A stretch of DNA of 64,000 nucleotides, taken from assembly GCA_000091205.1 (NCBI GenBank), contig AP006486.2, one strand, 5' to 3'. Origin of the DNA: Cyanidioschyzon merolae (Eukaryota). Position 1 is the stretch's first letter; every line of letters begins with the position of its first letter. Positions 12,903 through 64,000 of the stretch are shown in pieces. The notes beneath the pieces are model-generated. The model was not told the DNA's origin and did not search any database. It saw nothing but the letters and a program-made list of their open reading frames with translations. Both the position numbers and the translations under genes were made by a program.

Positions 12903-14018
12903 CTAGGCCCGTTCGATATTACGCTCGGCGAAAAAGGCTGCACAATATCTGCTGAACACGCGGATCCGCTGCAAAACAGTTGAAAGATAATGCACCTCGA
13001 TGTCGTTATGTGAGGCATTTTCCAGCCAGAGGGGCTCAGTTTTCATTTTGCAGCGTTCATAGAGCCCTCTTCCATGGCAAATTGAAACAACATTGTCCTG
13101 CATTCCATGAATAATGAGAACCGGAGCCTTGATGAGATGGATCCGATCAATCGATGGGAACATGTCCAGACAGGGAATCGTACAGCGAATGTCGGGGTAC
13201 ACCACGCGTAAACAGCTCATGAGTGGTGCAATGAGGACGACACCACCGATGGGAAATCTCGAAGCCAGCTCAACTGTTGGTCCTGATCCAACGGAGCGGC
13301 CAATGAGCAGGATTCGCTCGGGAGGCACGCCTAGATTGATAAGGTAACGATAACACGCGTACGTATCCTTATAGAAACGATATTCTGAGGGGCGAACACC
13401 AGCCGGTAACGAAAGACCGTATCCGGTGTAATCATAAGCAATCGCCTTACAGCCCAGAACCGTCGTCAATAGCTGCACATATGCTCCTGCAGAAGCAAGG
13501 TCCTCGGCATTGCCGTGCGAGTAGAGTATCGTGAAAAACTCCTCCGGATATCCCCTTCGTTCCCTCCTGGGTTGCGGCACTTGGTTTAAAATATCAAGAA
13601 CGTGTCCAGCTTCCATTTCATCACGGGAATCTGCAGTCCCCCCGGAGGTACCCTGACCTCTTTCCAACGGGGTGTCTTGTAGCTTCTGCCCATGCGCAGC
13701 CCTGCTCGACAAATCAAGCAAGGCTGCGACCTCACGTGGATCAACTTTTGCCTCTTGACCGACGTGAGTAGACTTTCGAGGCCAGACTTTCCAAAACGGT
13801 CGACTGTAGCGACGCAACTCTTGCACAGGAGACGCCGAGGTTCGCTGCTCCGAGCGGTTGCGTGGGGTCGGCTTTCGAGCCACACCTCCGTCGTAGTAAA
13901 TAACTGGAATGCGCGACCCACTTGCGGTCCATATCCAAAAAAGTTCGTTCTCCGACTCAACGGAATACTGCGGGGGGCGCGGAGGCTGAAAAACCATACG
14001 GGAATAAAGCAGCCCCAT
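12903..14018 (-). CDS. Alpha/beta-hydrolase of the ABHD17/FAM108 (ABHD13-like) family, a putative protein depalmitoylase or serine hydrolase.
   Basis: ATG start. The core LYSHGNAEDL ... YDYTGYG ... GRSVGSGPTVELASR ... PVLIIHGMQDNVV..HG..LYERC....EPLWLE.ASHNDIE aligns with ABHD17 (FSHGNAVDLGQ, YDYSGYG, GQSIGTVPTVDLASR, PVLIIHGTEDEVI, LWVEGAGHNDIE). The catalytic GxSxG is present. Confidence 0.75.
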   Translation of the reverse strand: MGLLYSRMVFQPPRPPQYSVESENELFWIWTASGSRIPVIYYDGGVARKPTPRNRSEQRTSASPVQELRRYSRPFWKVWPRKSTHVGQEAKVDPREVAALLDLSSRAAHGQKLQDTPLERGQGTSGGTADSRDEMEAGHVLDILNQVPQPRRERRGYPEEFFTILYSHGNAEDLASAGAYVQLLTTVLGCKAIAYDYTGYGLSLPAGVRPSEYRFYKDTYACYRYLINLGVPPERILLIGRSVGSGPTVELASRFPIGGVVLIAPLMSCLRVVYPDIRCTIPCLDMFPSIDRIHLIKAPVLIIHGMQDNVVSICHGRGLYERCKMKTEPLWLENASHNDIEVHYLSTVLQRIRVFSRYCAAFFAERNIERA

Positions 14019-20272: not shown

Positions 20273-21418
20273 ATGTTCCTTATAGCAAGCTGGAACTGCA
20301 ATTCTGTAACGAATGCTTTCCACCAGAAACTGGTGGTCCGATACAGTTCAGAATTAAGTCGCAGAAACCCACGAAAAGGAGCGTGTGGTGATTTCTGGGG
20401 CACAACTGAGCTTTCGAGGCGGTTGCCACAGGTTGACCGCCCGACCACGAGATTTGCTACCAGCAAGCAAACTCGCCGGAGAAACCGTTCAGAACTTGTA
20501 CGCTCTTCAGCACGTGGAGGCTCCGGCTCTAATGACCCTGAGGAAAAAGACGCAACCCCGGAACCAGGATCTTTCTTTGAAGAGGATTCAACGGCTATTG
20601 AGTACTTCAGCCCAAGTGAAAAGAGGGACACAGAGGTTCCGGTTTCGGGAAAGCTCGCTGAACTGCCTCTGTTTCCACTGCCCCTTGTTCTGAGTCCTGG
20701 ACAGCCCATTCCCCTGCATATTTTCGAAATGAGATATCGTCAGATGTTTCAGCGAATTCGGGAAGGAGATGGCCGTTTCGGTATTGTGATGTATGACAAG
20801 GACCGGAACGCACACGCTGCTGTCGGCACCATGGCCGAAATAAATGTATACGAACCCCTTGCGGACGGTCGAATCATGACAAGCAGTATCGGACGCGAGC
20901 GCTTCAGAGTGCTCAAGTACACGAAGGACTCTCCGTACCTAGTTGCGCTTGTGGAATACTTTGACGACGAAGTGTGCATCGAGAGCGTGGAGCAAATATT
21001 AGCGGCCCTGAAAGAGCCGCTACCGCAGAGCGGCGATCAGGAAACGAGCAGGATTTCCAAGCAAAGCTTGACGCTACTGGAGAGACGCGTTTGGTCGGCG
21101 CTCGGTGACGTGTTGCGGCTGTCAAATAAGCTGTACAACAGGGTGGTGAGTTTGAGTAAGCTCGTGGTGGATAATAGCCCTGAGACGGTGCTGAGCATTC
21201 CCGAGGGGCATTTGGATCCGGAGCAGAATTTCCATCGGCAGAAGCTATTTAGTTTTGCCGTAAGCAGTATACTCGACATGCCTGTGCGGCAGCAGCAGTT
21301 GCTACTGCAAACGCGCAGTACCGCAAAAAGGCTGTTGAAGCAGGCGCAATTACTCGAGGGAGCTCGACAGTACCTTGCTGCTCAAGTCACGATTAAGAAA
21401 GCCCTTGGAGAGTCGTAG
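20273..21418 (+). CDS. Lon protease N-terminal (LON substrate-binding) domain-containing protein with an S/R-rich N-terminal presequence.
   Basis: PLFPLPLVLSPGQPIPLHIFEMRYRQMFQRI...DGRFGIVMY...GTMAEI matches the Lon N-domain consensus (LPL..VLFPG..LPL.IFE.RY..M). The start is the first in-frame ATG; the ORF-track start at 20249 is a TTG. Confidence 0.6.
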   Translation: MFLIASWNCNSVTNAFHQKLVVRYSSELSRRNPRKGACGDFWGTTELSRRLPQVDRPTTRFATSKQTRRRNRSELVRSSARGGSGSNDPEEKDATPEPGSFFEEDSTAIEYFSPSEKRDTEVPVSGKLAELPLFPLPLVLSPGQPIPLHIFEMRYRQMFQRIREGDGRFGIVMYDKDRNAHAAVGTMAEINVYEPLADGRIMTSSIGRERFRVLKYTKDSPYLVALVEYFDDEVCIESVEQILAALKEPLPQSGDQETSRISKQSLTLLERRVWSALGDVLRLSNKLYNRVVSLSKLVVDNSPETVLSIPEGHLDPEQNFHRQKLFSFAVSSILDMPVRQQQLLLQTRSTAKRLLKQAQLLEGARQYLAAQVTIKKALGES

Positions 21419-30647: not shown

Positions 30648-31433
30648 CAAAACGAGCGCGTGCTGAGAGAGCCCGTCTCTGCGGAGAATTGCAATGGTTG
30701 ATGGATGTCTTTTGCGCTCGGCACTGCCTCAGATCCGTTGCATTATCGAGCTGCTAAATCTTTGTTCACAGCTCCTGCTCTGAATTTGTTGCGAAGACCG
30801 ATATAACAATGCTAGGCCAATTGCTGCGGCGAACAGAAAGAATATGAACATGATCAGCGATCGTAAAGCGATGCGACGCATTTTGCACTTTTTGTTCCAC
30901 GCTTCGCGCCGTCAACATCCAACAGGGCGCTGGCACTTATGTCCGTCTTCGACTGACAGCAGATCTGGCAAAAAAGGGATGCTGGCGTATGAGAATCCGA
31001 AGATAGGAAGACGACAAGGAAGCTGTTGTAGAGAGAACCCTCAAAGCTTTGCGTTTTAATAGTGGAAAGAGTCCCAAACTTCAACCTGGACGCTCGTGTC
31101 GGTGGAACTGCTTCATTTCATAGTGACAGGGTGTAGTGCTGGCGAGCGGCTACGTTGGAAGCGCTCGAGCTTCTCTGCGGAAAGCTGGTTTCACCGTGGA
31201 CAACTCAAAAGGCCAGCTTCCGCAATATGTTGAGACTTTTTGTTTAAAACACCTAAAAGTCAGCGAGTGTTTGACTTTCGCAACGAGGCGCTGGCTTTCC
31301 GAGAGTTACTTACTATTAACGAAAGAGAACATTTAAAGCTCCACGGCAGGAAGCTGTTCGAAAGAAATTTGTGACTCTTTTGCACTCGCTGTGGAAACTT
31401 TGCGAAACCTTCCGTGACTATCAACTCGTTCAT

Positions 31434-32381
31434 ATGGATCAAGAGCGCGTTCTTCTTTCGCTTCAGCGACTCCTGGCCCCGGGCCAGCATCAGTCTGAGA
31501 CACAACTCGTTGCCTGCCTAGACGCGAGGGAGCTTAACGTGGAGGTGTTCTCAACTTTGTGGGAAAGCCTTGCAGCCACAGTCAGTTCAATCAACCCCAG
31601 ACTACTTCAGGTGCTCGAAGCAGAGCTCAGAGCGCTGCTTCGCCTCCTCTATTTTGCATTCAGCGTCGGTGTCGGCAGACCATTTCCTGGCGACGTTTAC
31701 CAGAACCTCACATACAGGGTAGATGTTGGTAATACTGTGTCAGAGGGAGACTCCGTTATCATGACCAGGGGCAGAAGGTTCCTCTACGGTTGTGCCTACG
31801 TCCTGGGGCACTACCTGCTGGAGCGTTACCAGACGATGCGTTACACGGGCTCCCCTTGGGTGCCGTCTGCGTCGAGCGCAGAAATGATCGACAACCTTCT
31901 CAAATCTATGGAATCTCTGAACTTTTTCCTGTTCTTTTTGATGAGAAAGTACCGGAATCCACTGGAGCGCATTTTTAGGCTGCGCTTGCGGCGGGCAGAG
32001 ACAGGCGCAACCCGCGCTCTAAGTTTTGAGATGCTCAATCGACAGCTTGTCTGGGAGGGCTTCACGGAACTTGCGATATCGGTGATACCCATCTTGCAGT
32101 CACCGCTTCTGCATCGAATCCTGAGGAAGGCCGTTTTCCATGGCCGTTTTGGAGCAGCATCGCGTGAAGTTGTGTCTCAAGAGCACTCGGGCAAAATCCG
32201 ATGCCGACTTTGCGGAAAATCGAGACCTCTTATGCCGCACATTCTCATCCCATGCCGACATCTTTTCTGCTACGTCTGCATGGCTATGAAAATACGTACC
32301 AATGGCTCGGAGGGATGTCCGTATTGTGGGTCTGAGTTTGAGCGGGCTGAAAGCGTGATTCCATCTCAGATGGTCATGTGA
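31434..32381 (+). CDS. PEX2: Peroxisome biogenesis factor 2 (PEX2), a RING-finger peroxin.
   Basis: It ends in a C3HC4 RING, CRLCGKSRPLMPHILIPCRHLFCYVCMAMKIRTNGSEGCPYCG (human PEX2: [28 protein letters not shown]...CPKCG). The N-terminus MDQERVLLSLQRL...LDARELN resembles the PEX2 N-terminus (RVLRISQLDALELN). The central block LNFFLFFLMRKY...LERIFRLRL...FEMLNRQLVWEGFTEL resembles LINFLIFLQRGKF..LTERLLGI...EYMNRELLWHGFAEF. The start is the first ATG; the ORF-track start at 31371 is a GTG. Confidence 0.75.
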   Translation: MDQERVLLSLQRLLAPGQHQSETQLVACLDARELNVEVFSTLWESLAATVSSINPRLLQVLEAELRALLRLLYFAFSVGVGRPFPGDVYQNLTYRVDVGNTVSEGDSVIMTRGRRFLYGCAYVLGHYLLERYQTMRYTGSPWVPSASSAEMIDNLLKSMESLNFFLFFLMRKYRNPLERIFRLRLRRAETGATRALSFEMLNRQLVWEGFTELAISVIPILQSPLLHRILRKAVFHGRFGAASREVVSQEHSGKIRCRLCGKSRPLMPHILIPCRHLFCYVCMAMKIRTNGSEGCPYCGSEFERAESVIPSQMVM

Positions 32382-32791: not shown

Positions 32792-35323
32792 TCAGGCGGT
32801 CTTCAAAGTGGAATCTTGTGAATGTACGGGGTTCGGATGGGAAACCTGAGCACCAACGAGCATACGGCTATGTACTGGCGAAGCGATGTCGATGCGTGTC
32901 CTTTGACGCTGCTGAGGCTGAGCTTCTCTATTCGAGCAATGGTCGCTAGGTGCGTCCGCGCCGGTGTGCTGCGCTGACCCCGGCGCAAGGCAACTTGACG
33001 TCCACGAATAGTGGGAGCGAAATGCCTCTCTCTCTTGAAGCTCATTCAGTACTGTTCGCCAGCTGGCGCTCGGTGCTGCAAAGCGTAACGCGTATAGTGC
33101 ATAGCCTTTCCAGAAGCTCGCGATTGGTTCATCTGCAGCGTCGTTAGCCTCGGTACCACTAACGCCTTTTGGTATGTCAGAAAACTGCTGCTCAAGTGTT
33201 GCCGGTCGGTCCCGCAACGCCGTGGCGACCTCTGCTACGCCACGGAGCCATACCTCAAGCATGGCGCGCGCTGCCTGGAAAAGCCATTCAGTTATCTCCT
33301 TGTCTAGCGCTCCAAGGTCTTCCTGGTCATAAAACAGCCGCAGGCTATCCACTATGTGACAAAAAGCATATGCCAAAAGAAGTGGAACCCAGCGCAGCCC
33401 ACGCTCGAACAGCTGCACCAGGCTTGTCACACTGCAAATGCGGCCGGAAGCAATATCTGTAGTGAATCCACGAATCCGCTCCTTGAGCTGCCGCAGGAAA
33501 TGCTTTTTCATGTTTGGAAATGCACGACATATCAAGCTAAATTCCTTCATTATGCGCTGTGTGCAGCTCTCGATTTCATTCCAGGTACAGGTCGCATACC
33601 AGAGCGGGGATTCCGCCTCAGGCATGCCCACCGTATAAGCAACAGACTGATTAGGTTCGCATGAGTACGCCGCCTGGACCAGTTGACAGTCAAGCAAAGG
33701 TCCCGACTTTGGGCTGATGCGCTCCAACGAAATATGTAGCGTTTCCGGTATTGATGTGGAGAACACCGAGCGGAATCGGGACGGACGCATTTTCCTTGCA
33801 ACTGACGAGAAGTCCGCGAGTTTCGGTATGCAAAGAGCAGTACTCACCTGTTCTTCATGCAGCAAAGCTCTTCCATCTCGAACACACTCGCCAATGAGTC
33901 GATGCAAAATCTGTGTATAGCCGTCTACCAGATCTTCCGCATGCTGCGACAGCACGGCGGGAACCAGTTTTTCTAGCGGCCTCATCAACATAGTGAGAAT
34001 CTCTGCTTGTAAAGCGGCGAAAAACCCCGGCGCTGCGGGGCCTTTCGCTGTTCGTGATCGCCCCAAGCGACAAGCGCTATCAAGTTCCTGAAGCAAGCCA
34101 GTGAGTGAGGCGGCGGTTGCCTTGTTCGCTCCGTGGTCCGCCAGCTTCTCGACGACTGTGTCTAGCATCTGCCAAATCTGTTTTGTATATGCATCAAGCA
34201 GAGACTCTTGTTTTGGTGCCGGTGTGGATACAATAGTCGGTCGCAGCCGGAGGGGTTCGCAGTCCGGGGAGCGCTCCGGGTGGTCACCATACCCGTCGAC
34301 CAGATCCAGCGGCTGGGCAGACCAAATAGAGAGCGTGACTGCCTCGTGATTTGCAGATTGCTCCTCGAGGCTCGCAAATGCCCCAAGGAATGAAATGACT
34401 GCACAAAAAGCCTGTCGCACCAATGTAAGCGTGACTTCAGGTCCACGGCTGCGCATCCGTTCGCAAACAATCCGACTGTGACTCTGAAACAGAGTATGCA
34501 GCATCTCGCCTAAATCCATGCCGAGGTCGATCTGGAGCCAGAGGAGCGCAGCAAAGCGCTTTCGCCGTTCAGACATTGGATACTCTATCGAAGAACTATC
34601 AAAGCACATGCTACATGCCGTCATTCTAGCTCGCTCTACGATCTCTTCTCGGAGCAGTGCACATTGTTCATGCAGCCTCACTCGTAGCTCGTGAATGAGA
34701 CTTTCAGAACGCAGTGTTGCGGTTTTCGTATCCTCCACAGGATTCCCCAGGGCGGCCTTGCTGCGTACGTATAGGGCATGCGCCTTCACAAGTTCTAGCC
34801 ACGAGCCATCCTCCAGCGCAGAGCAGGCACGCTCGAGAAGGCGCCGAGCCAAGCGGAGGCATTGCACTTGGGCCAGCAGGTCCAAGGGCGCTGCTGAGGG
34901 GTTTCGCGTTGCCGCTAGGTGGCAAGGTTGGACGTCCAGAGACTTCCACGTTGCGTCCCGGCGAAGTCGGTAAGAGAAAGGTGCAACGCTTCCTTCAGCT
35001 GACCCGCGAGAGCGCGCTTCGAGTTGCTCGTTTTCCCTCGATCCGTATCCCGCAAGCGACTCGTCCGACTTGGTTCCCAGCGGCGTACCCTGCTGAGAGA
35101 CCGCTTCCGATGAAGGACAACGCACACGAGAAGAGGTTTGGGCTGCAGCTCCGCGATCGCTTTCCTGCAAGGTCTCCAAGGTTCCGCACAACAAGTGCGC
35201 CCGCCTTGCAACAAATTCTAACGCGCTTGCAGCTTTTACAACAGAGGGATACACCAGCAAGAGGTTAGGCACCTCCTGTTGCATACCCCGAGCACCAGCG
35301 GAGTTGGAGCTATGAGGTTCCAT
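32792..35323 (-). CDS. Large hypothetical protein (about 843 aa), predicted mostly alpha-helical, function unknown.
   Basis: A long uninterrupted ORF with non-repetitive composition and codon usage like the neighbouring genes. I recognise no diagnostic motif. The start is the first in-frame ATG at 35323; the ORF-track start at 35329 is a TTG. Confidence 0.5.
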   Translation of the reverse strand: MEPHSSNSAGARGMQQEVPNLLLVYPSVVKAASALEFVARRAHLLCGTLETLQESDRGAAAQTSSRVRCPSSEAVSQQGTPLGTKSDESLAGYGSRENEQLEARSRGSAEGSVAPFSYRLRRDATWKSLDVQPCHLAATRNPSAAPLDLLAQVQCLRLARRLLERACSALEDGSWLELVKAHALYVRSKAALGNPVEDTKTATLRSESLIHELRVRLHEQCALLREEIVERARMTACSMCFDSSSIEYPMSERRKRFAALLWLQIDLGMDLGEMLHTLFQSHSRIVCERMRSRGPEVTLTLVRQAFCAVISFLGAFASLEEQSANHEAVTLSIWSAQPLDLVDGYGDHPERSPDCEPLRLRPTIVSTPAPKQESLLDAYTKQIWQMLDTVVEKLADHGANKATAASLTGLLQELDSACRLGRSRTAKGPAAPGFFAALQAEILTMLMRPLEKLVPAVLSQHAEDLVDGYTQILHRLIGECVRDGRALLHEEQVSTALCIPKLADFSSVARKMRPSRFRSVFSTSIPETLHISLERISPKSGPLLDCQLVQAAYSCEPNQSVAYTVGMPEAESPLWYATCTWNEIESCTQRIMKEFSLICRAFPNMKKHFLRQLKERIRGFTTDIASGRICSVTSLVQLFERGLRWVPLLLAYAFCHIVDSLRLFYDQEDLGALDKEITEWLFQAARAMLEVWLRGVAEVATALRDRPATLEQQFSDIPKGVSGTEANDAADEPIASFWKGYALYALRFAAPSASWRTVLNELQEREAFRSHYSWTSSCLAPGSAQHTGADAPSDHCSNREAQPQQRQRTRIDIASPVHSRMLVGAQVSHPNPVHSQDSTLKTA

Positions 35324-36660
35324 CAACAAAAAGGGCCACAGCGTTCGGCACCCTGGCGCAAGCTTGCCTTAAGCAGTTACGTCACACGCATTCACTGAAG
35401 CACCTTCCAGTGGAGTCCAGCGGTAAACGACGCAAGTGTGCCGAACTCAACCCGGTGGACAAACAAAGTCAATCTACCATCATCAGTCGACGTCCTGGTT
35501 AGCGTTTTCAATTGGTAGGTTCGCTAAACCCCTTCAAGATTATCCCCGATCTGCAGATGCTCGAATCGCTCTGCATGCCGGTGCACGCTGCCAGCTGCAT
35601 CATGTGTTCTTGTCCTATGTTACCTGCATTCGCTGCCGACGGTCTTGCCGTCCACGCATCTATCGTACATCATCCAAACAGGTCACGCAGGCGCCCCTAC
35701 CCACTTGCGCGGAGAACCGCGGATCCGAAACTTACCACGATTTCAGGCCTCTTTTGCTTGATCCACTTGGCTCCGTTGTGCACCATCCGTCCTATGGAGA
35801 AGCTCATCACTGAGGGCTTCAAAGGTGTGCGACGAGCACCTGTGATACTCATAGCCGTTCAGCTGGGCTATTCCTATGTGGCAAGCTAGTAGATTAGCCT
35901 AGACCAGGCATTTAGTGTGTGTTAAAGAATAATATCTGTAGCGCGAACTTATTTGCGAGACGTGATATGCGCCATTGCCCATCCCTTGACTCTGCGCTGC
36001 CCTTGCGTTGGGGAGAATTGCTGTCTCTTCCAGAATGCCGCGGTTTCGAATCGCAACGAGTATATTTGTTGAGATGTGTCAATCGCGTCTGGGAGCGACG
36101 CACACAGCGCCCTGGCGCGAACGCAGCACACGCAGCGTGGCAGCTTCTGAGTCGAGCGATCGACTTCTATTCGATTGTTTAGTATGCAGTGTGGGTATTG
36201 TGCTGGAATGCTGCGGACTCTCGATGAAAAACATCATGTATCATCAGAGCGGCGATTAAGTCCCCGCTTGGGGCAAGCCACTTGTATGGTACGGTCTGCA
36301 CTGTATCAAGGCTGGACTGCCATATACTTTCGCCACGAACAATGTTCGTGGGTAACTGTTAAACTATAATTGTGTTTCATTCATCAACATGACGGAGAAT
36401 AAATCCACCAATCACATAACATGTACAAAACGTACAGACCGATTGGGCTGCAATCACCTCGGCAGGTGCGGAACGGGCACCGCATCCCCGAGGTGAGCCT
36501 GGCTCTCTGGAGCGGGCGCGCTGAGAACACCGGCCAGTAACGGGATCACTCCCACGCGAAGCGCTTCGAAATATCAAAGAACATTCTTCGTTTCGTTGAG
36601 CGTTTAACGGCATTGCCACGTGAAATTCCTCTCGTTTGGAAGTAGACGTTTTTGACTGTT

Positions 36661-37824
36661 ATGGCTTTCGTGTGCTATCCGCTGTTTACAAGTGCAAAGT
36701 TTCGTGTCATACCCGCACACGGTCTGCATTCGAGGAGCAGCACGCTGTGGAAGGGCACTACTGCGGGACGGCATGCGGCTGGTAGGGCTCTTGTCGCCTC
36801 TTCAACAGCCCGCGGCGCTCTCACACTTCGAGGCAACGCGGCGGGCGCTCCTCGACGCCCTTTGCAACCGCTGCTTGCGAAAGGTGCGGCCGTGCTCGCG
36901 GCTTTAGCTGTTGCAATCTCTCCGTTGCTTGGTGACCCAGAAGCCGCACTTGCAGCACAGGGAGGCGGTCGGGTCGGTGGCTCGTCTTTTCGGGCACCGG
37001 CGACTCGGAGCGCACCGCCTCGGAGCTATCGCGCTCCTTCCGGGGGTATTGGAGGATATTATTATAGCCCGGCACCAGTTTTGCCTTTCACGCCCTTCTA
37101 CTTCGGGCCAGTGGTTGTGCCGTTTGGTTTCACCGGAATAGGGACTTTTCTTCTTGCGGCGGCATTCTTCGCGTTTGCCACACGTGCTCTAAGCTCGAAT
37201 CTATCCGGTCTTGGAGTTTCTGCTGCCGCAGAGGATAGTGAACTGGCCGCAGAACAGACGACGCTGGTGAAGCTTAAGGTGGGTTTGCTCAGTACAGCTC
37301 GCGAGCTGCAACAGGAACTGGAAGAAATTGCGCTCCGCAGTAAGACAGATTCTATTGTCGGCCTGCAGCAGGTCTTACAGGAGACAACGCTTGCGTTGTA
37401 CCGAAACCCTGACTATTGGAGCTTCGGGAGCGTAAACGTGAAGCGCACGTCGCTCTCAGAGGCAGAGGCTGCATTCAACAACGAGTCTTTCGCTGAACGC
37501 GGGAAACTTGAGAAAGAGACACTATCAAATTTTGGTGGACAGATTGATATTCGGAAGCGGGAGGTTGCAGAACGCGACTCCACCGACATGCGAGTACCCG
37601 AGTTTATTGTGGTCACACTGATTGTTGCTGCGTCTGGCCGAGTTCCAGGCGTTCCTACAGAGATTCGAAGAAGCAGTGACATCGAGGCGGCGCTTCGGGC
37701 ACTTAGCAGCATCCCGCGGGAAGCACTCCAGGGCGTGGAGGTCATCTGGTCACCTCAGTCGCGCGAGGATGCGCTTACTGAGAGCGAAATGCTCGCTGAC
37801 CATCCGGAGCTGGTGCGAATATAG
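36661..37824 (+). CDS. DUF1517-like glycine-rich membrane protein, putatively plastid-targeted.
   Basis: After an N-terminal presequence-like region comes a Gly-rich block GGGRVGGSSFRAPATRSAPPRSYRAPSGGIGGYYY, then hydrophobic segments (FGFTGIGTFLLAAAFFAFA), then a charged coiled region. This architecture recalls the plant and cyanobacterial DUF1517 family. The assignment rests on memory of the family pattern, not a search. Confidence 0.45.
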   Translation: MAFVCYPLFTSAKFRVIPAHGLHSRSSTLWKGTTAGRHAAGRALVASSTARGALTLRGNAAGAPRRPLQPLLAKGAAVLAALAVAISPLLGDPEAALAAQGGGRVGGSSFRAPATRSAPPRSYRAPSGGIGGYYYSPAPVLPFTPFYFGPVVVPFGFTGIGTFLLAAAFFAFATRALSSNLSGLGVSAAAEDSELAAEQTTLVKLKVGLLSTARELQQELEEIALRSKTDSIVGLQQVLQETTLALYRNPDYWSFGSVNVKRTSLSEAEAAFNNESFAERGKLEKETLSNFGGQIDIRKREVAERDSTDMRVPEFIVVTLIVAASGRVPGVPTEIRRSSDIEAALRALSSIPREALQGVEVIWSPQSREDALTESEMLADHPELVRI

Positions 37825-38735
37825 AGTGATGCGGAGTCCACCGAATACCAGAAACGGAGGTTCGCTCTCGGAAGGCGAAATCGTTAGGAACACGAGATCC
37901 AGCGTGGATATCGATGTGGATTTGGTTCGTCGCATATAGCAAGGTCGATACGGCGGCCCGCATCAGCAGGTCTCCTGCAACGTCATCCGTTCCATGCGCT
38001 CCGTGACATCAATGCTGTCACCTCCAGTGTCATTCCTAACTCATCGAAAGCGATACTTTAAAGCGGAAGCGCGGACCCCACAGAGTGGACGCATCTCGCT
38101 GAAACCCAGAATAGAATCGTGGGTTTGGTGCTCTGTGCATGTGGCCCACGCCCAGCGCTGAACTACGGAAATCTGGCTTGTGGACTGGTACGCAAGACCT
38201 GCGTGGCAATACGAGCGGGGCACCCATATGAAGTATCCATGTGCGTCTTGCACAGAATGCGATGTGCGACCCAAAAAGCGAGCACTCGATGGCGGCGACA
38301 TATCTCCCCAGGAATTGCCCCTCTTGCCGCTCTCGATTGTTGGGTTCGCGAGAAACACCGGAACTTTTATATTCTTTGGAAAGAGGCAAACAGTGCGCGA
38401 GAACTGAGCAGCGTTGCAAGTCTGTAGTCCATAGCTGCTGATTCAGTGCGTTGACAGAGGGTAATATGCTGGAAGTGGGGCGCAACGTGTTTCAGAAAGT
38501 TGTACAGAAATGCCCAACCGGTTGCGGCAGCATGCATGCGCCGCCCCAGCACCTCCAAGGCTATGGTGGCGGTTTGCTGCGGGCGTTCTGCGGATCTCAA
38601 GCCGGATCTTCGGGTTTGCGGGCAAGGCGCTTCATGTTCGTTGCAGGTAGAGTCGAGAGCGCGTTTTTCTCGCGAAAAACAACAAGGGTTTTGTCTAGAT
38701 ATAAGACTTCGAAAAGTAGAATTTCCAGGTGTAAA

Positions 38736-39239
38736 ATGAGCTTTAACGGGGGGTTTCTCGGAAAGAACGCCGTGTTCGCACAGACGATGCTTCGAATCAA
38801 GGACCCCTCAAAGTCGCGGCAGTTTTACGAGGCGCTGGGTATGAACTTTCTGACGCGCTTCGACTTTCCGGAACTGTCATTCTCCCTCTATTTCTTCGCA
38901 CTGGAGAAGGATCCAACAGTGCCGGCGGAAGATGCTCCACAACCAGAGCGGGCAAAGTGGCTTTTCTCGCGTCAGTACCCGACTCTTGAGCTTACACATA
39001 ACTGGGGAACTGAGAAGGATCCGAATTTCAAGTACGCAAACGGGAATACGGAGCCGGGTAAGGGCTACGGTCACATCGGCTTTCTCGTGGATGATCTCTA
39101 CGCGAGCTGTGCCGCCGTAGAGAAAGCGGGTTATGTCGTGTCGCGGAAACCGGGACCCTTCCAGAACGTGGGCGAAATTGCTTTCGTACGGGACCCGGAC
39201 GACTACTGGATTGAGTTAATCCAAAAACCCAAGTCTTGA
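38736..39239 (+). CDS. GLO1: Lactoylglutathione lyase (glyoxalase I).
   Basis: [82 protein letters not shown] and [14 protein letters not shown] align almost residue-for-residue with human GLO1 ([22 protein letters not shown]..., [54 protein letters not shown]). The start is set at the ATG at 38736. The longer ORF-track extension from 38451 has no homology. Confidence 0.85.
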   Translation: [167 protein letters not shown]

Positions 39240-40452: not shown

Positions 40453-41555
40453 ATGAGCTGCAAAGGTGCAGCTTTTGGGTTCGCCACTCTAAATGGCTTG
40501 TCAGTTCGGAGGCATTTGTTTTGTAGGAGTTCGGCAAATCTTCGAGTCTGCGGGAAGCTTTTTACTGGTTCACAATATCCACGTGCTCCAAGGTATTTTT
40601 TGGTGCACACTGACAAGAGTGCCGGCAACACTCCAAGTACACGAGGTTGGGAGGAATATGCGGGAAACTTTACTTTCAGGCCTCCGCACGTTATCGCAAG
40701 GCCCTCACAGCGCATAGCCTACAGGATTGGAAACGGTACACCGCTGCCTCCCAAAGCCCTCGTTCATTTTCTCGGGGGCGCCTTCATTGGCGCCGCGCCG
40801 CAGGTTGCGTATCGATGGTTTCTCGAGCAGTTGGCTTTAAAGGGCTTCGTAGTAGCCGCGACGCCGTATCGACTTTCCTTCGATCACCTTTGGACGATGG
40901 ATGACGTGCTCACCAGGTTTTCAGCAGCAGCGGGAATGCTCGCTCTAGATTATGATCCTATCCCTGTTGATGGGATCGGTCGCTCCTTGGGCGCTCTCCT
41001 GCACACCCTTGGAGGCAGCTTGTTTTGCAACGCGGATGGGTACAAGGCTGCCGATGTACTGATTGCATTTAATAATCGCCGCGCGGAAGATGCGATACCT
41101 TTATTCAGAGAGCTTATCGCGCCCGTAATTAAGACAGTTGCCGGACTGGTGAACTCTCTGATGTGATCCAGCGACTCGTTATCGATGGGCCTGAGACCTC
41201 TGACACTCTGTTCGACACTGTTACAGATGATGTGTTCCCTGGTTCTCGGGATAGTGAGCTTTTCGCCTTGGTGCGACAGTCAAGGGCGCTTGCGCAGCAG
41301 ATTCCACCTTTATTTGCTGAGGTCGCTGATGGAGCTTTTGCATTCAACCCTGATCCTATCGAGGTCATGGAGGCAATTCGCACACTATACAAAGTTCGTC
41401 AAACGCTTATTGTGAGCTTCGAAAACGATATCCTCGATGACTCGCGTTCGCTCCAGAAAGCACTAGACCCTGAGCGAGGCGGTACAGTAATCCGTCACGG
41501 GGGAACTCATTTAACCCACTGCGCACAGGATTTCCTGACCCACGGCTCCGAATAA
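40453..41555 (+). pseudogene. DUF1350-like alpha/beta-fold protein gene split over two reading frames (40453..41166 in frame 1, then about 41133..41555 in frame 3). It is either a frameshifted pseudogene or a sequencing error.
   Basis: ATG at 40453. LVHFLGGAFIGAAPQVAYRWFLEQLALKGFVVAATPY resembles the DUF1350 family (plant and cyanobacterial). The downstream ORF continues without an ATG (the track start is a GTG) and looks like a continuation of the protein. The two frames overlap only between a TAA at 41130 and the TGA at 41164. Confidence 0.5.
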
Positions 41556-45220: not shown

Positions 45221-48067
45221 ATGTTCGGAAAGCCTCTTCCAGAGTGGCTAGCGGCAACGTACCCGCCAGAACCTGGAGCCTCGCTCTGTGACTCGAGAGC
45301 TTACTGGAGGTCTCACATTTTGAACTACTTTCAAAGTGTGGGATGCCCTTTGCAAGATTGGCATCTCGGTGACCGGCCTATCACGTCAGCTCGTTCGCTT
45401 CTCGACTGGATAGATGGAATTCGCGTAGGCCAGGATCCTCAGCACCGTGAGCGCTTGCGCTGGCGACCTGCTCTGAATACGCTGATGGAAGCTGATGTGC
45501 CAGTGTCAAGGTCTCAAGAGGAGCTACTCAGAACTGCTCTTGATCTTCTTCGCGGTGACGATCGGTACGTATTGATCCGAGGTCACTCGGACTCCCGCTA
45601 TGCTGGGCCGAACGCATCAGTTGCAAGACTTCTGGCTCCAGAATGGGTAGCGCTCACGCGTGCACTGGGCGACTGCGTCGCTCTCCGGCTGATCACCGAC
45701 TTCGTCTTGCTGGAAAGAGTTGGTCCCTCCTGTTACATACAACTGAGCGGACGGGTCGGACTAGAAAGGCTCTCTGCGAAGTCAGCGAAAGCACCCCAGA
45801 CTCATCGTGAAATCCCATGCGATATGCGCGGCGCTAGTCACAGACTGCATATCAACGCAGATCCGCATAGAACTGAATGTCCAACGAAAGCACGCATTGA
45901 AACATCCAAGGCACATGCTCTCCCGATTTCGACGAAAAGCATCGCGCTCGGCCCCTACGGCATAACGACAAGGAACCCGTATCTTGCCATGCATCCCTCA
46001 AAATCTAACGCCAAACGTTTGCTTGCGCTCGCTGCGGCAGGGCTGTGCTCACGCGAAGAGTATCATGGAGGGGTGTGTCTCCCTCTTCGCTGCTCCTCCT
46101 GTATTCGTTTCCTTGACGCTTTTCGCTGCATACTGGTGCGAGCGTGGGATATTCCTCTGAAGGGAATGCTCAACCATTACTGCCCATCGAAAGCAACCAC
46201 TGTGGACCAGTCTCAACCAGTTATGAAAAAATATGCCTCTTCACGCCGCTCTGTTTTCCATTTCCTCTTTGCGATATTCAGATCGATTGTTCCCACTTGT
46301 GTGTTTGAGTCCTTTACATTTGAAATCTGGGTACGGAAGGCGATATCCTCCTTCCTTCTGAGCAAAATATCTTCCACGCCTTACGATGTACGACTTCATG
46401 TCGCTCAGCTGATGGAAACGGTACAATTTCAGCAGCATCAGCCTATGTCTTTTGGCGACGCTGGAGTATGCCGCAACCATCCGCTGCACATTCAGCATAT
46501 TTTCAGCTTTCTTTTCAACGCCATCGTCATACACGTCTTCGATGAATGTTTTGTTCTCAGCGCAGCCGATCGCGCTGAGATGCGGAGATTGATATTACGT
46601 CGAGACTCGCTCTTCGTTTTCCGCACGCAAGCCATTGCTCACCTTGTACGCAGTGGCGACTTTGAACGCATGCGGAAGAATCTCGGTAAGCGAACTGGTC
46701 ACTGGACAAGTGTTCGTATTTTGCCGAAAGCGAACAGCTTTCGACTTGTTCAAAAAATGAGCCCTGACACACAGGGGAAGGAGACAACCCTAATACACGC
46801 TGTTTGCCTGTACGAGCGCTTGTCTCGACCTGAGGCGTTCGGCGCGAGCATTCGTTCTCTAACTGAAATGCACCAGCGTTGGGCCGCCTTCGTCCAGAGA
46901 TGGCGACGGTTTGGGCGACCGCCTCTTTTTGCACTATGCTTCGATATCCGCCAGGCTTTCGATTCTATACCTTTGAAGCGTTTTCTCTGGCGAGAGCTTT
47001 CGGATTTCTTTCACTCAGAGGCCTACGCGCTTCGAAGGTTCATTGTCACAGACAAACAATTTCGATTTCCACAACGAAAGTGGTTTGCCTGCCCTATTGC
47101 TGATGTCACTAGAGGTTACGACGCTTTTGCTCTGCAGTACTTGCAGTCAGCCCGCAGCAAAATTATTGCCGACGAGGGCGTGATTTGTTCGCTGCATACC
47201 GCCGATATCATTTCGCATTTACGTCGAATTATCGGAAGCAATCAAGTTCATTTTGGCGATCATTCTTCAGCGTTAATCCAGCGCCGGGGCATTCCCCAAG
47301 GTTTACCAATATCGAGCATCCTATGCGATTTTCACCTCGGATGCTTTGAGCGAAAATGTCTGAAGGATTTCCTTCGCGTTAATAGTACAAAGGATCCGCC
47401 TTCCTTATTGATGCGTTACGTAGATGATGTGTTTTTCGTAACGAGTGAAGTTTCCATCTTCCGTGCGTTTTGCAACAGGGTTCAGCAGTGCTCAAAAGCG
47501 CTTGGCGTGATGCCATCTCCCGGGAAGACTCGAAAATGCGTCGCAGGCGGTAGGAAACCCCGTATCGAATGGTGTGGCATGATTTTCGATCTGCAGAGTG
47601 CCCAAGTTCTACTACGGATGCCGCGGTCTATCCCATCGGAGGCACCGGACGCTGCTGTCTTTTTCTCGAAATGCAAAACCGCAAGCCATCCTCGAATCCT
47701 CCGACGGTTTATTTCCATTTTCGCCTCCCAGATGCAGTCAGTATTCCTTGATCTCTCCATTAACGGCCCTGAAACTGTGAAACGGAATATCTGCACTGCA
47801 TTACGCCTAGCCCTTAACCGCATCGGTGAGGATGATCTGAGAAGTTCGCTGCGAGAGAAACCAGCTCAACGCATCCTGTTGCGATGGCTACGTCAAACGA
47901 CCATGAATCGATGCTGCCGCTGGGAGCCGTTGTCGGAACAAACGCCACAAACGTACCGCAGTGAACTGAACCGAATCCTCTGCGAAGGATTTAGGATAAT
48001 CTTACACAAATGCATTCACAACGAAGATTGTTTTCAAGGCTGTCGTGCTGCTTCAAGCTGTGCGTGA
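45221..48067 (+). CDS. TERT: Telomerase reverse transcriptase (TERT), 948 aa in a single exon.
   Basis: RT motifs match TERT: motif 1/2 VRILPKANSFRLV (human RFIPKPDGLRPI), motif A LFALCFDIRQAFDSIP (hhDVTGAYDTIP), motif B' RGIPQGLPISSILCDFHLGCFE ([22 protein letters not shown]), motif C LLMRYVDDVFFVTS (LLLRLVDDFLLVT) and motif E IEWCGMIFDL. The upstream T/CP-like region and the N-terminal extension are consistent with a TEN/TRBD region. ATG at 45221. Confidence 0.85.
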   Translation: MFGKPLPEWLAATYPPEPGASLCDSRAYWRSHILNYFQSVGCPLQDWHLGDRPITSARSLLDWIDGIRVGQDPQHRERLRWRPALNTLMEADVPVSRSQEELLRTALDLLRGDDRYVLIRGHSDSRYAGPNASVARLLAPEWVALTRALGDCVALRLITDFVLLERVGPSCYIQLSGRVGLERLSAKSAKAPQTHREIPCDMRGASHRLHINADPHRTECPTKARIETSKAHALPISTKSIALGPYGITTRNPYLAMHPSKSNAKRLLALAAAGLCSREEYHGGVCLPLRCSSCIRFLDAFRCILVRAWDIPLKGMLNHYCPSKATTVDQSQPVMKKYASSRRSVFHFLFAIFRSIVPTCVFESFTFEIWVRKAISSFLLSKISSTPYDVRLHVAQLMETVQFQQHQPMSFGDAGVCRNHPLHIQHIFSFLFNAIVIHVFDECFVLSAADRAEMRRLILRRDSLFVFRTQAIAHLVRSGDFERMRKNLGKRTGHWTSVRILPKANSFRLVQKMSPDTQGKETTLIHAVCLYERLSRPEAFGASIRSLTEMHQRWAAFVQRWRRFGRPPLFALCFDIRQAFDSIPLKRFLWRELSDFFHSEAYALRRFIVTDKQFRFPQRKWFACPIADVTRGYDAFALQYLQSARSKIIADEGVICSLHTADIISHLRRIIGSNQVHFGDHSSALIQRRGIPQGLPISSILCDFHLGCFERKCLKDFLRVNSTKDPPSLLMRYVDDVFFVTSEVSIFRAFCNRVQQCSKALGVMPSPGKTRKCVAGGRKPRIEWCGMIFDLQSAQVLLRMPRSIPSEAPDAAVFFSKCKTASHPRILRRFISIFASQMQSVFLDLSINGPETVKRNICTALRLALNRIGEDDLRSSLREKPAQRILLRWLRQTTMNRCCRWEPLSEQTPQTYRSELNRILCEGFRIILHKCIHNEDCFQGCRAASSCA

Positions 48068-49207: not shown

Positions 49208-51610
49208 GAGCAGTGAATCCCGGAACAAGTGCATCAGCTCGCACTTTCCTTCTTGTTCCATTTGTCACAAGTACTCATCAAAAGAAATGTATATTTTAGA
49301 TCGGAGAAAGGTCCCGAAAACATTAGATTTCGTCACTGCTAGCTTCCCCGGAAAACGAGCTTGCTTCTTCCAGCCTGTTATTCGTCGGTCAGCAGGCGGA
49401 TACATCCCCGCCCTTCACGTATTGCTTATCCTGAACGTTGTGCTTCCACAACAGAACTTATCAAACCCGCTGGACGCGACGGTCGCCTCGTCAATCCGTT
49501 CCTCCCCATACGTTCTCGGTGAGATACCACCAAAGAAGTCACAGCATGCGCAGTTTCCCCATCGGTGATACAGGCGGAGAAAAATACGCCCGGATGCAAG
49601 AGCAAAACGAACATGCTTCTTCGGGAGACCGTCGCGCATTGAATGAAGCACCCCTCGTTTCGCACTGGAGCGCGAAGGCCTCGCACTCGACGGATGTTCG
49701 TCTCGATATCCTGAACCTTATGCCCGACAAATGGTAGACATGTGCACGGCGACTCGAGCAGGGTCAAACCGCTGTTCGTGCAGCAGAGACAAGAGAGCAT
49801 GATGACAATATCGGCCCTAGCGACGGTGCTATCCTGTGGTCGCCTACGTATCGCGATTCGGACAGGATTGGTCAACGCCTTAGCCTTCGTCGAGGAACGC
49901 TTCGCGGCTTCTCCTCCACCATGTCATTCTATGCTGTTCTTCGTAGACTTCGCTTTCCGTGTCTTAGACGCTGTCAAAGAGTACGCAGGTGGAACTAGCG
50001 CTGAGCCGCCCTTCACGTCAGACTATTCTTCCTGGTTCAATGCGTCGAATGCATCTTGTCTGTTATCAGACACCATCTCTGTGCTCACTCACCTATAGAC
50101 GAGTCATTCGCATCCGTAAAATTATTCTTCAACGAGTACGTCTTCGAGAACAGGTCCTGTACTTTCACTGGGCCTGAATTGCTGCGTTCCTCCTGCGCTC
50201 TTTCTGCTGAGGGAGCGCAGAGGCGCGCTCCGTGCCGCGAGCGTACTCGCCACGGAGAAGTCTGTAATGAGGCACTTGAGCAATCGTGGTTGCTTGCGTA
50301 CACAGAAAAGCACGAATGTCAGCGCCGTCGTCCGCACCGTGTGCCTGAGTCCCAGGAAAAAAGGATTTGGATTATAGCGACAACATCCACACTACTCCGC
50401 CAGCGAGACGACGGGGCGACGGAGAAAGACAGGAAAATGCCGGACAAACAGGAAGTGAATGATCCTCCCAGAAAGAGGACGAAGAAGAACCAGAAGGGAA
50501 AGCGGCCGGGGCAGACATATCAGCGAGAAACAGTTGCCGAAGCCTCTCTACGGAAACACATCAATGGGGGCAAGCCTCCAAGATGTGGGGTTCAGGACAC
50601 CATTCGGGATTTCGAGGCTTCTCACTCGAGGAAGTCTCCACGGGCTTCTCTCGCCGAGGCGCCCGTCGTCAAACACATGTTCGCGTGAGTGCTGGACGCA
50701 GAGCTCCCCGCGCTCCAGGCTCCTCTGGATTTTGCCAAGTAAATCTTCGACCGGCAACGCAGCTGATGCTCGCGACGGTGGATGCAGCACGGCCTGATCG
50801 AAGAATCAGGGACTTGTATGAATGCCTCTGAGCGTACGATGACTCGTCGGCGCGCCGCGTCGGCAACAGGAACGTCTACAACGCAGGTGCCACAGATGAA
50901 ATGAACCACCAAAAATTCAAGTTCCTTGGCGGGTCATTGTTGAGCACCTCACCGGGCATACCCAGTCAGCGTTGTACGCTTGTGCACTCACACCAGTGGT
51001 CCGGAGCGTGAGCACTGATGGAAGGGGTTCATAGGGGTGCCCATGGAGGCAAGTGACGAGCTGGAGGCTACGGAGGAGCGCGAGATGGCAGCGAGTTTCG
51101 AGAAGATGCCGCAGCAAGAGCGGTGGGCGCTTCAGATCGTTCAAGTTTATGGTGCTGCTGAGGGCTATTGGACCGCCGAACGTCGTTCCTGAGTATGTTT
51201 GAAGCGCGACGCCTGCCATGCTTGCATGTTGCGCTACTTCGGTTTCCTGAACAAAACCTCCACTGTAGAGCACCCTCCCTGGCCGAGTCCGAACTCCCTG
51301 GCCTACTCAAGCGCTTCTTGGACGCGGTCCATGCACGCGACTTCTAGGGCCACGATATTACTGTACTGTACTGCACTGCAGTGTACTGGACTGCACTGGA
51401 CTGCACTGCACTGTACTGCACTGTACTGTACTGCTCTGTACTGCACTGCTCTGTACTGCACTGCACTGTACTGCTCTGTACTCCTCTGTACTGCACTGCA
51501 GTGTACTGGACTGGACTGGACTGCACTGCACTGGACTGCACTGTGCTGTGCTGTGCTGTGCTGTGCTGTGCTGTGCTGTGCTGTGCTGTGCTGTGCTGTG
51601 CTGCACTTGA
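49208..51610. repeat. Dispersed repeat family B, copy 1 (at least 2.4 kb), apparently non-coding. Its 3' part is a pentamer minisatellite.
   Basis: It is about 97-98% identical to 61773..64000 in the same orientation (constant offset 12565 until the minisatellite). The ORF-track translations are duplicated at 49742/62307, 50056/62621, 49426/61991 and so on. Copy 2 is cut by the window end, so the true 3' boundary of the family is unknown. Confidence 0.9.
51354..51608. repeat. Minisatellite of degenerate (T/C/G)ACTG pentamers, about 38 units, followed by about 12 perfect CTGTG units.
   Basis: Direct reading gives tactg tactg tactg cactg cagtg tactg gactg ... then ctgtg repeated 12 times across 51541..51602. 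It generates long spurious ORFs on both strands (51199..51870 +, 51344..51616 -). Confidence 0.95.
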
Positions 51611-53341
51611 CCGCACTGCCCCGTCCTATCCTATACTGTACTACCTGCTCAATGAGCTACAACTGGTCTTTGCGAGCACATATGAAGCACTCGAGCATCT
51701 TTACGAAGAGCATTGGCGGGGGCCGTTCAAGGTTGTTTCTTGACGCAGAGTCCAAGGAAGGAACTGGACAGGTGCAGTGCAGACCGACGGAATATCCCTC
51801 TGGTTGCACTCTGTTCAGTCGATACCCGAGTCCCGCAAAGAGGCTCGTTTCAATCGCTCATCGTCGATGAAATCTAAAATTTCGCGGCGGGTGTAGGTCC
51901 CGGGTTGCAGGACGTCATAGCTGTCGCCGTGCTCCCAGGTCAGGACGACGAAGCCAAGGGCCTGAACTGAAAGCAGCTGGAGAAGCTAAATGTTTCCAGA
52001 GCTCCGTCTTATTGAGGGTCGCGCATGACAGGTGTCAGAAGGCATACCGACAGATGGAATGGACGCGGCAGGACCCAGATAGACGCCCTGAATACCGTGC
52101 GGAGCAGAGGTGGTCCTTCGAACGCTTCAGCCGAAGATTGCGTGAGCGTCTGAATGGCTCGTGCGGAAGGCGTCTCTGGCAGGCGTACCCGAGGCCGCGC
52201 TGAGGTCGCCAACTTTTTCGGTTGCACGGAGACAAGAAACGTCCATTGACCGTCCACTTCCATATATTGGAGAAGGAAATGACCGACAAGTCGCTTCGTT
52301 CGAAGGCAGCGTAGGGTTCTTGATGTGTTGCGGCGTGCAGTGGCTCCACTCTTGCTCGTCGAATGCGAGCGCACGACAAGTGCAGGAATCGACTCTTCAG
52401 GAATCCCATCGGTGAGTTCGGGACGACAAACACTCCTTGCGGACACGGGTGTGCGCTGAAACCGATTGAGAAGAAGCGAGTGAAGCGCAGACAGCTGTAT
52501 GAGATGGTGTACGGCAGGGTGACCAAACCTCAGATACCGGTGCATTCGAAGGCGAGCGGCTTTGTATAGTGCGATTCTACCAGCAAGCTTGTGCGCAGGC
52601 GCTTTCTGCAGCGAGACTTGAACGTCCCGCTCAACGTTCGGAAATGTCACGTGCCTCCGGAGCGCTCAGCGGCTTTGCATCGAGCGGGTTGTCGGGGAAG
52701 AATCGTTCGCTTCTCAGCGTAGGCATTGTGCTGGAGCGCTGAGGACTCCCGATGCAGAACAAATCAGTAGCCGGGATCGAGGATCGTGGATTTCCGCCTG
52801 GAGCAAGACACTGGTATGGAACGGTGTATCAGTTCGGAATAGGCTGGAGTGCCGCTTATCTAGATCGGGAAAGACTTTCGTAGGCAACTGATGAGTGATT
52901 ATGGTGTAGGATTACTCAATAAGATGGGCAAAGTTGAGCGAGCCCTGTCGTCAACGCCGTGCCTGCGTTAGCGACGGCTTTCGCAGCTGTATGCCAGGCT
53001 TCCTGACACCAGCGGATTCGGCGAACGAAAATATTTCGAAGTTCAAAAAATTCCTGACGACCTCGATTATTCTGAGATGTACATAGACGAAATTCGTGGA
53101 TTCCTGACAACGCATCTGGCTCGAGAATTGTACGCACCACAGACTGGATCCTAATCGCAGATCTGTTCATTCCTGTGGAAGAGATAAATGCGGGTCGTTC
53201 GCTCGTCGACCTTGACACCTCTAAATCGCAACATCATCCGTTGTTCATCGATGTGGAGGAGCCTCAAAGCAACAGCTCAGCTAGTGTCTCGCAAAATGCG
53301 ACTCGTGCGAGCCTGCTGAGCGCAAATCCTCAGAGAGGCTT

Positions 53342-61772: not shown

Positions 61773-64000
61773 GAGCAGTGAATCCTGGAACAAGTGCATC
61801 AGCTCGCACTTTCCTTCTTGTTCCTTTTGTCACAAGTACTCATCAAAAGAAATGTATATTTTAGATCGGAGAAAGGTCCCGAAAACATCAGATTTCGTCA
61901 CTGCTAGCTTCCCCGGAAAACGAGCTTGCTTCTTCAAGTCTGTTATTCGTCGGCCAGCAGGCGGATACATCCCCGCCCTTCACGTATTGCTTATCCTGAA
62001 CGTTGTGCTCCCACAACAGAACTTATCAAACCCGCTGGACGCGACGGTCGCCTCGTCAATCCATTCCTCCCCATACGTTCTCGGTGAGATACCACCAAAG
62101 AAGTCACAGCATGCGCAGCTTCCCCATCGGTGATACAGGCGGAGAAAAATACGCCCGGATGCAAGAGCAAAACGAACATGCTTCTTCGGGAGACCGTCGC
62201 GCATTGCATGAAGCACCCCTCGTTTCGCACTGGAGCGCGAAGGCCTCGCACTCGACGGATGTTCGTCTCGATATCCTGAACCTTATGCCCGACAAATGGT
62301 AGACATGTGCACGGCGACTCGAGCAGGGTCAAACCGCTGTTCGTGCAGCAGAGACAAGAGAGCATGATGACAATATCGGCCCTAGCGACGGTGCTATCCT
62401 GTGGTCGCCTACGTATCGCGATTCGGACAGGATTGGTCAACGCCTTAGCCTTCGTCGAGGAACGCTTCGCGGCTTCTCCTCCACCATGTCATTCTATGCT
62501 GTTCTTCGTAGACTTCGCTTTCCGTGTCTTAGACGCTGTCAAAGAGTACGCAGGTGGAACTAGCGCTGAGCCGCCCTTCACGTCAGACTATTCTTCCTGG
62601 TTCAATGCGTCGAATGCATCTTGTCTGTTATCAGACACCATCTCTGTGCTCACTCACCTATAGACGAGTCATTCGCATCCGTAAAATTATTCTTCAACGA
62701 GTACGTCTTCGAGAACAGGTCCTGTACTTTCACTGGGCCTGAATTGCTGCGTTCCTCCTGCGCTCTTTCTGCTGGGGGAGCGCAGAGGCGCGCTCCGTGC
62801 CGCGAGCGTACTCGCCACGGAGAAGTCTGTAATGAGGCACTTGAGCAATCGTGGTTGCTTGCGTACACAGAAAAGCACGAATGTCAGCGCCGTCGTCCGC
62901 ACCGTGTGCCTGAGTCCCAGGAAAAAAGGATTTGGATTATAGCGACAACATCCACACTACTCCGCCAGCGAGACGACGGGGCGACGGAGAAAGACAGGAA
63001 AATGCCGGACAAACGGGAAGTGAATGATCCTCCCAGAAAGAGGACCAAGAAGAACCAGAAGGGAAAGCGGCCGGGGCAGACATATCAGCGAGAAACAGTT
63101 GCCGAAGCCTCTCTACGGAAACACATCAATGGGGGCAAGCCTCCAAGATGTGGGGTTCAGGACACCATTCGGGATTTCGAGGCTTCTCACTCGATGAAGT
63201 CTCGACGGGCTTCTCTCGCCGAGGCGCCCGTCGTCAAACACATGTTCGCGTGAGTGCTGGACACAGAGCTCCCCGCGCTCCAGGCTCCTCTGGATTTTGC
63301 CAAGTAAATCTTCGACCGGCAACGCAGCTGATGCTCGCGACGGTGGATGCAGCACGGCCTGATCGAAGAATCAGGGACTTGTATGAATGCCTCTGAGCGT
63401 ACGATGACTCGTCGGCGCGCCGCGTCGGCAACAGGAACGTCTACAACGCAGGTGCCACAGATGAAATGAACCACCAAAAATTCAAGTTCCTTGGCGGGTC
63501 ATTGTTGAGCACCTCACCGGGCATACCCAGTCAGCGTTGTACGCTTGTGCACTCACACCAGTGGTCCGGAGCGTGAGCACTGATGGAAGGGGTTCATAGG
63601 GGTGCCCATGGAGGCAAGTGACGAGCTGGAGGCTACGGAGGAGCGCGAGATGGCAGCGAGTTTCGAGAAGATGCCGCAGCAAGAGCGGTGGGCGCTTCAG
63701 ATCGTTCAAGCTTATGGTGCTGCTGAGGGCTATTGGACCGCCGAACGTCGTTCCTGAGTATGTTTGAAGCGCGACGCCTGCCATGCTTGCATGTTGCGCT
63801 ACTTCGGTTTCCTGAACAAAACCTCCACTGTAGAGCACCCTCCCTGGCCGAGTCCGAACTACCTGGCCTACTCAAGCGCTTCTTGGACGCGGTCCAAGCA
63901 CGCGACTTCGAGGCCCACGATATTACTGTACTGCACTGCACTGCAGTGTACTGGACTGGACTGGACTGCACTGCACTGGACTGCACTGTGCTGTGCTGTG
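61773..64000. repeat. Dispersed repeat family B, copy 2, cut by the window end inside its terminal minisatellite.
   Basis: See copy 1. The pentamer minisatellite begins at about 63921. It has far fewer NACTG units (about 13) before the CTGTG tract than copy 1 (about 38). Confidence 0.9.

Follow-up and report, generated by a model that had tools for sequence, protein, structure and literature searches.

The TERT locus

Within a 64,000-nucleotide stretch of the Cyanidioschyzon merolae genome (contig AP006486.2 of assembly GCA_000091205.1, referred to in its full length as the window), we analyzed an open reading frame (ORF) on the plus strand that is annotated as telomerase reverse transcriptase (TERT). 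An earlier note on this DNA, made from its letters, had described an uninterrupted frame of 948 amino acids at positions 45221–48067, and we recovered exactly these coordinates, with an ATG start, 948 codons plus the stop, and no internal stop codon. The ATG is the first possible start codon past the upstream stop. The N terminus that follows it, MFG..PL..WLAA.YP, is kept in three other Cyanidiales orthologs, and this conservation makes the start credible. The ORF is by far the longest in its neighborhood, and the G+C content is ~52% across the whole window and does not shift at the gene.

A word-indexed protein search returned a single cluster at 90% identity, the protein's own, whose members include BAM79184.1, XP_005535470.1, and UniRef100_M1V6S8. 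The window protein is identical at 948 of 948 residues to XP_005535470.1/BAM79184.1, the "probable telomerase reverse transcriptase" of C. merolae 10D, so that 45221–48067 holds the complete TERT coding sequence of that entry. Nozaki et al. 2007 (PMC1955436) named the gene CMD110C, placed it on chromosome 4, and reported it as transcribed; our full-text literature search found no mention of CMD110C beyond that paper. The window thus belongs to chromosome 4 of C. merolae, and the gene is already annotated and published (CMD110C/XP_005535470.1), having been public from the time of the genome papers on C. merolae; as it is already explicitly named TERT, its recognition here adds little. The single-exon structure to which the earlier note drew attention is real but uninformative, since introns are found in only 0.5% of C. 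merolae genes (PMC1955436).

Reverse transcriptase domain and C-terminal extension

The reverse transcriptase (RT) domain occupies residues ~495–800 (46703–47620, plus strand), as defined by Pfam RVT_1, the alignment to human TERT, and the invariant residues. Motif alignment places motif 1 at residues 498–512 (nt 46712–46756), motif 2/3 at residues 531–543 (nt 46811–46849), motif A at residues 572–584 (nt 46934–46972), motif B′ at residues 687–702 (nt 47279–47326), motif C at residues 729–741 (nt 47405–47443), motif D at residues 766–772 (nt 47516–47536), and motif E at residues 784–790 (nt 47570–47590), all on the plus strand. Motifs 1/2, A, B′, C, and E, which the earlier note had read from the sequence, are therefore all present, and motif D is to be added to them. 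Residues D575, Q687, G690, Q693, G694, D735, D736, and K769 are invariant across an alignment of 16 TERTs, and the catalytic aspartate triad, composed of D575 from motif A together with D735 and D736 from motif C, is intact. Between motifs A and B′ lies an insertion in the fingers (IFD) of 102 amino acids (residues 585–686; nt 46973–47278, plus strand) that is collinear with the IFD of human TERT and is modeled with a predicted local distance difference test score (pLDDT) of 67–92.

Pfam RVT_1 matches residues 570–788 with an E value of 2.8e-11. When the single protein sequence was searched with phmmer against all PDB chain sequences, 11 matches were obtained, 11/11 of them to TERT. The best match, to human TERT (E 3.9e-21), aligns query residues 523–865 with human residues 659–1009, a span that takes in motifs 2/3, A, the IFD, B′, C, D, and E as well as the onset of the C-terminal extension (CTE).

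The CTE, or thumb, comprises residues ~823–930 (47687–48010, plus strand) and is placed by the alignment to human TERT, by an AlphaFold2 model, and by Foldseek. It aligns with human TERT as far as residue 1009–1025, is modeled as a helical bundle with a pLDDT of 70–90, and is backed by full-length Foldseek matches to the human, Tetrahymena, and yeast proteins. In the Cyanidiococcus ortholog P0165, a weak collinear Pfam match to TERT_C is also observed.

The N-terminal half: TRBD and TEN

Upstream of the RT domain, we locate the telomerase RNA-binding domain (TRBD) at residues ~295–490 (46103–46690, plus strand) from phmmer, hhalign, and a clade profile. By alignment, it contains a CP motif, MLNHYCP (residues 316–322; 46166–46186), a QFP-type block (residues 344–358; 46250–46294), and a degenerate T motif, CFVLSA...LILRRDSLF (residues 443–465; 46547–46615), each on the plus strand. 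The ortholog alignment keeps C321 and P322 of the CP motif, along with P358.

When 1.84 billion representatives were searched exhaustively with phmmer, 729 matches were obtained at E ≤ 1e-3; many of the alignments begin at query residue ~300–340, and the TRBD is aligned over query residues ~300–500. In eight of nine sampled matches, Pfam Telomerase_RBD (E 1e-15 to 1e-46) falls within the stretch aligned to the query, and these eight proteins also have RVT_1; most of them add TERT_C, and some add TEN_TERT. In the remaining match, the Cyanidiococcus ortholog P0016, RVT_1 is the only domain, as it is in the query itself. A clade profile of residues 275–486, made from the window protein, P0016, and P0017, all three of which are without a Pfam RBD match, was compared by hhalign with the TRBD region of 12 canonical TERTs and gave a probability of 97.1% (E 5.3e-11) over 167 columns. 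Searching PDB sequences with a four-sequence Cyanidiales profile yielded 18 matches, of which 18/18 are TERT. The match to human TERT (E 7e-46) extends through the TRBD, RT domain, and CTE (profile 323–886 against human 438–1025), and the same profile matches the isolated TRBD crystal structures 4o26 (1.6e-9), 4lmo (1.9e-8), 2r4g (0.005), and 5c9h (0.008).

A TEN-like region with a GQ-type block is found at residues ~97–178 (45509–45754, plus strand), its core being EWVALTRALGDCVALRLI...CYIQLSG (residues 141–177). Comparison of residues 1–178 with 12 canonical TERT N termini gave an hhalign probability of 95.9% (E 6.4e-9) over 82 columns (residues 97–178), and this stretch is collinear with residues 120–179 of human TERT, which positions 126–185 of the four-sequence profile also match. 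Within the GQ-type block, W142, G150, and C171–G177 are invariant in Cyanidiales, and the TEN-like region is modeled with a pLDDT of 75–88. The orthologs give weak collinear Pfam matches to TEN_TERT, Telomerase_RBD, and TERT_C; those to TEN_TERT (E 0.0045 and 0.14) lie at the corresponding position and are below threshold. The TEN-like region and the TRBD are separated by a linker of predicted disorder (residues 181–246; 45761–45958, plus strand), which has a pLDDT of 25–35 and no secondary structure and is gapped and poorly conserved in the alignments. These results bear out the proposal in the earlier note that the N-terminal region is compatible with TEN and TRBD.

Structural model and comparison with other TERTs

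The AlphaFold2 model was built without templates on the 16-TERT alignment and has a mean pLDDT of 70.3 and a predicted template modeling score of 0.68, with confident blocks at residues 100–180, 250–480, 520–800, and 820–930. In a Foldseek search of the PDB with this model, the top 18 matches are all TERT, with E values from 1e-32 to 1e-14. Human (E 1e-32), Tetrahymena (E 4.5e-27), and yeast (E 2.7e-23) TERT match over the full length, with template modeling (TM) scores of 0.54–0.60 across ~1000 columns. The best RT other than TERT reaches an E value of 8e-7 and a TM score of 0.21, and for the R2, DRT2, LINE-1, and group II intron RTs the values are no better than E ~1e-6 and TM ~0.2.

The C. 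merolae protein has a TEN–TRBD–RT–CTE architecture with an intact catalytic triad. It shares this architecture, including the IFD within the RT domain, and the catalytic aspartates with human (PDB 7qxa, 7trd) and Tetrahymena (7lma) TERT, whose full-length folds match its model with TM scores of 0.57–0.60. Despite these similarities, it is ~180 amino acids shorter than human TERT, in which the TEN–TRBD linker is longer, and it is only ~18% identical to the human and Tetrahymena proteins, from which it also differs in its degenerate T-motif core. The repeat found at the chromosome ends of C. merolae is likewise different, a 9-nt AATGGGGGG rather than TTAGGG or TTGGGG.

Full-length orthologs are present in Cyanidiococcus yangmingshanensis (941 amino acids, KAK4533437.1), in Cyanidium caldarium (945 amino acids, KAK4534983.1), and in one further member of the Cyanidiales (964 amino acids). 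With the C. merolae protein they share the 941–964-amino-acid size class, a collinear domain order, the GQ and CP motifs, and the degenerate T motif, although their identity to it is only 26–41%. Unlike the C. merolae protein, the Cyanidium ortholog still clears the threshold of Pfam Telomerase_RBD (E 7.8e-15). For C. yangmingshanensis, TERT is represented by two public gene models, both labeled "hypothetical protein" at NCBI: KAF6001024.1 (P0016, 772 amino acids), which is truncated at the N terminus, and KAK4533437.1 (P0165, 941 amino acids), which aligns end to end with C. merolae TERT.

Divergence of the T motif and alternative interpretations

Several observations count against the assignment of a telomerase catalytic subunit. 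Pfam Telomerase_RBD, TEN_TERT, and TERT_C have no match on the C. merolae protein even at E ≤ 1, and the core of the T motif reads CFVLSA (residues 443–448; nt 46547–46564) in place of the canonical FYxTE. Residues 1–95 are poorly supported and of low confidence in the model (pLDDT 38–73), and the alignment from which the model was made consists of TERTs and may bias it toward a TERT fold. In addition, three other red algae gave negative results when the telomeric repeat amplification protocol was used to test for the Cyanidioschyzon-type repeat (PMC3622300), and the literature searched includes no biochemical experiment showing that C. merolae TERT is active as a telomerase.

The T motif is similarly divergent in the three other Cyanidiales orthologs. 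Of 112 other TERT matches examined in a crude regular-expression survey, about one third do not fit the strict pattern F[FY]x[TS]E, many of them owing to conservative variants. For this reason, we read the degenerate T motif as lineage divergence and do not promote it to a finding. The CFVLSA divergence is probably what causes Pfam Telomerase_RBD to miss the protein. The earlier note had relied on a domain search to tell TERT from a retroelement, and here that check came close to misfiring, as Pfam returned RVT_1 without Telomerase_RBD; the profile and structural methods, on the other hand, do recover the TRBD. A plain Pfam scan thus overlooks the TRBD, TEN, and CTE of a real TERT, and treating the lack of a Telomerase_RBD hit as refutation produces false negatives in divergent lineages. 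It is also conceivable, if rather unlikely, that the divergence of the TRBD in Cyanidiaceae, where FYxTE no longer occurs and neither the Cyanidioschyzon nor the Cyanidiococcus protein is recognized by the Pfam RBD model, reflects an unusual mode of telomerase RNA binding or of template-boundary definition. Were this so, the difference might be connected with the 9-nt G6 telomere repeat, which is unique, and might be part of the reason that no red-algal telomerase RNA has been validated.

The degeneracy of a motif involved in RNA binding raises the alternative that the protein is a TERT homolog without canonical telomerase function, either an inactive relic or a protein with another role. The replacement of FYxTE by CFVLSA, the failure of the Pfam TRBD model, and the lack of activity data in the literature noted above are all in keeping with such a homolog. 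We nevertheless consider it very improbable. The ORF is intact, its catalytic triad is invariant, as are motifs 1 to E, and three full-length Cyanidiales orthologs at 26–41% identity retain this divergent T motif, which implies selection rather than decay. Variation in the T core is not rare, as the failure of about one third of other TERT matches on the strict pattern indicates. Moreover, the gene is reported to be transcribed, and the regular AATGGGGGG at all 40 chromosome ends needs templated synthesis (PMC1955436).

That the ORF encodes a retroelement RT (LINE, R2, or Penelope-like) in place of TERT has almost no probability and is already effectively refuted: although generic RVT_1 is the sole Pfam domain above threshold and NCBIfam gives weak matches to group II intron RT and Drt2/Drt3a, those matches score 20–24 bits against cut-offs of 200–390 and reflect only the shared RT palm, the retroelement RTs fit the model far less well than TERT does (E ~1e-6 and TM ~0.2 as opposed to 1e-32 and 0.57), both TRBD and TEN are present in the protein, the endonuclease, RNase H, and integrase domains for which the earlier note had suggested looking are absent from the protein and the neighboring ORFs, as is a GIY-YIG domain, the synteny of the locus is conserved across strains and independent environmental contigs, and transposable elements make up only 0.7% of the C. 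merolae genome (PMC1955436).

We therefore hold, with a probability of roughly 95%, that the ORF encodes TERT, the catalytic protein subunit of C. merolae telomerase, as the earlier note had recognized; the identity to the annotated 10D protein, the RT motifs, the IFD, the CTE, the TRBD, and the GQ-type TEN block all agree with this assignment. Its enzymatic activity, RNA partner, and template are inferred. By homology with structurally characterized TERTs, the TRBD, RT domain, and CTE would form a ring around a separately encoded telomerase RNA held by the TRBD and CTE. Residues D575, D735, and D736 would then extend the 3′ ends of chromosomes by copying a short RNA template that is a permutation of CCCCCCAUU, and the copying of a CCCCCCAUU-type template would give rise to AATGGGGGG repeats. 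The TEN domain and the IFD may support repeat-addition processivity.

Telomere repeat and telomerase RNA

The telomere repeat of C. merolae is AATGGGGGG at all 40 chromosome ends, and two candidate, unvalidated telomerase RNA genes, CMM123T and CMP131T, have been described on chromosomes 13 and 16 (PMC1955436), which fits the remark in the earlier note that the telomerase RNA is usually unlinked. As of 2022, telomerase RNA inference had failed in Rhodophyta (PMC9841428), and reviews still treat red-algal telomere data as fragmentary (PMC7046594, PMC3622300). The content of the window does not bear on the identity of the red-algal telomerase RNA.

We considered a telomerase RNA linked to TERT within the window and rejected it. 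CCCCCCATT has no match within the 64 kb, no circular permutation of the telomere unit of at least 11 nt occurs in the window (the longest, at 20705, is 10 nt), an Rfam scan of the window found no family at the gathering threshold, and the window contains no telomere-like tandem array. These searches agree with the earlier note, which had seen neither a template-like region in the flanks nor a telomere-like repeat structure. The 9-mers of the telomere unit occur 3 times in the window, at or below chance when compared with a shuffle mean of 5.6. The earlier note had also listed six-C runs at 15991 and 16142 only. The second position is correct, the first is really 15981, and three further C6/G6 runs had gone unmentioned; the five lie at 13638 (plus), 13972 (minus), 15981 (plus), 16142 (plus), and 38748 (minus), a number below the chance expectation of 13 ± 4.6. 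A tRNA search of the window found none, and a scan for sigma-70 promoters and terminators gave counts at chance level, such bacterial-type signals being irrelevant for a eukaryote.

Genomic context

The genes that flank TERT are ordinary cellular genes. Pfam identifies a Pex2/Pex12 RING protein gene at 31371–32381, a DUF1517 gene at 36652–37824, a glyoxalase-fold protein gene at 38451–39239, and a DUF1350 gene at 40453–41166. Three environmental metagenome contigs carry a near-identical TERT gene with the same upstream neighbors, at positions 10001–12847 of L001, 3942–6788 of L002, and 1079–3925 of L003 (from JGI 3300005573 and 3300027863 and ENA ERZ27247228). These environmental alleles differ from that of strain 10D by 7 nt, with two of the differences being non-synonymous (V285A and D871N), and therefore show that close relatives of C. 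merolae have been sampled in public metagenomes. The TERT locus is chromosomal, stable, and present in single copy, unlike a mobile element.

Elsewhere in the window, an ORF of 845 amino acids on the minus strand (32792–35329), the second largest in its half of the window, has no Pfam match at E ≤ 1e-3. A pentanucleotide microsatellite, (YACTG)n, extends over 51359–51607 with ~50 copies and 82% matches and sits within a mechanically called, TTG-start ORF at 51199–51870. Since the translation of this ORF is merely the repeat in three frames (LYCTA/LHCTA...), with no Pfam match, it is probably not a gene. A second YACTG array of ~13 copies lies at the edge of the window, at 63925–63988.

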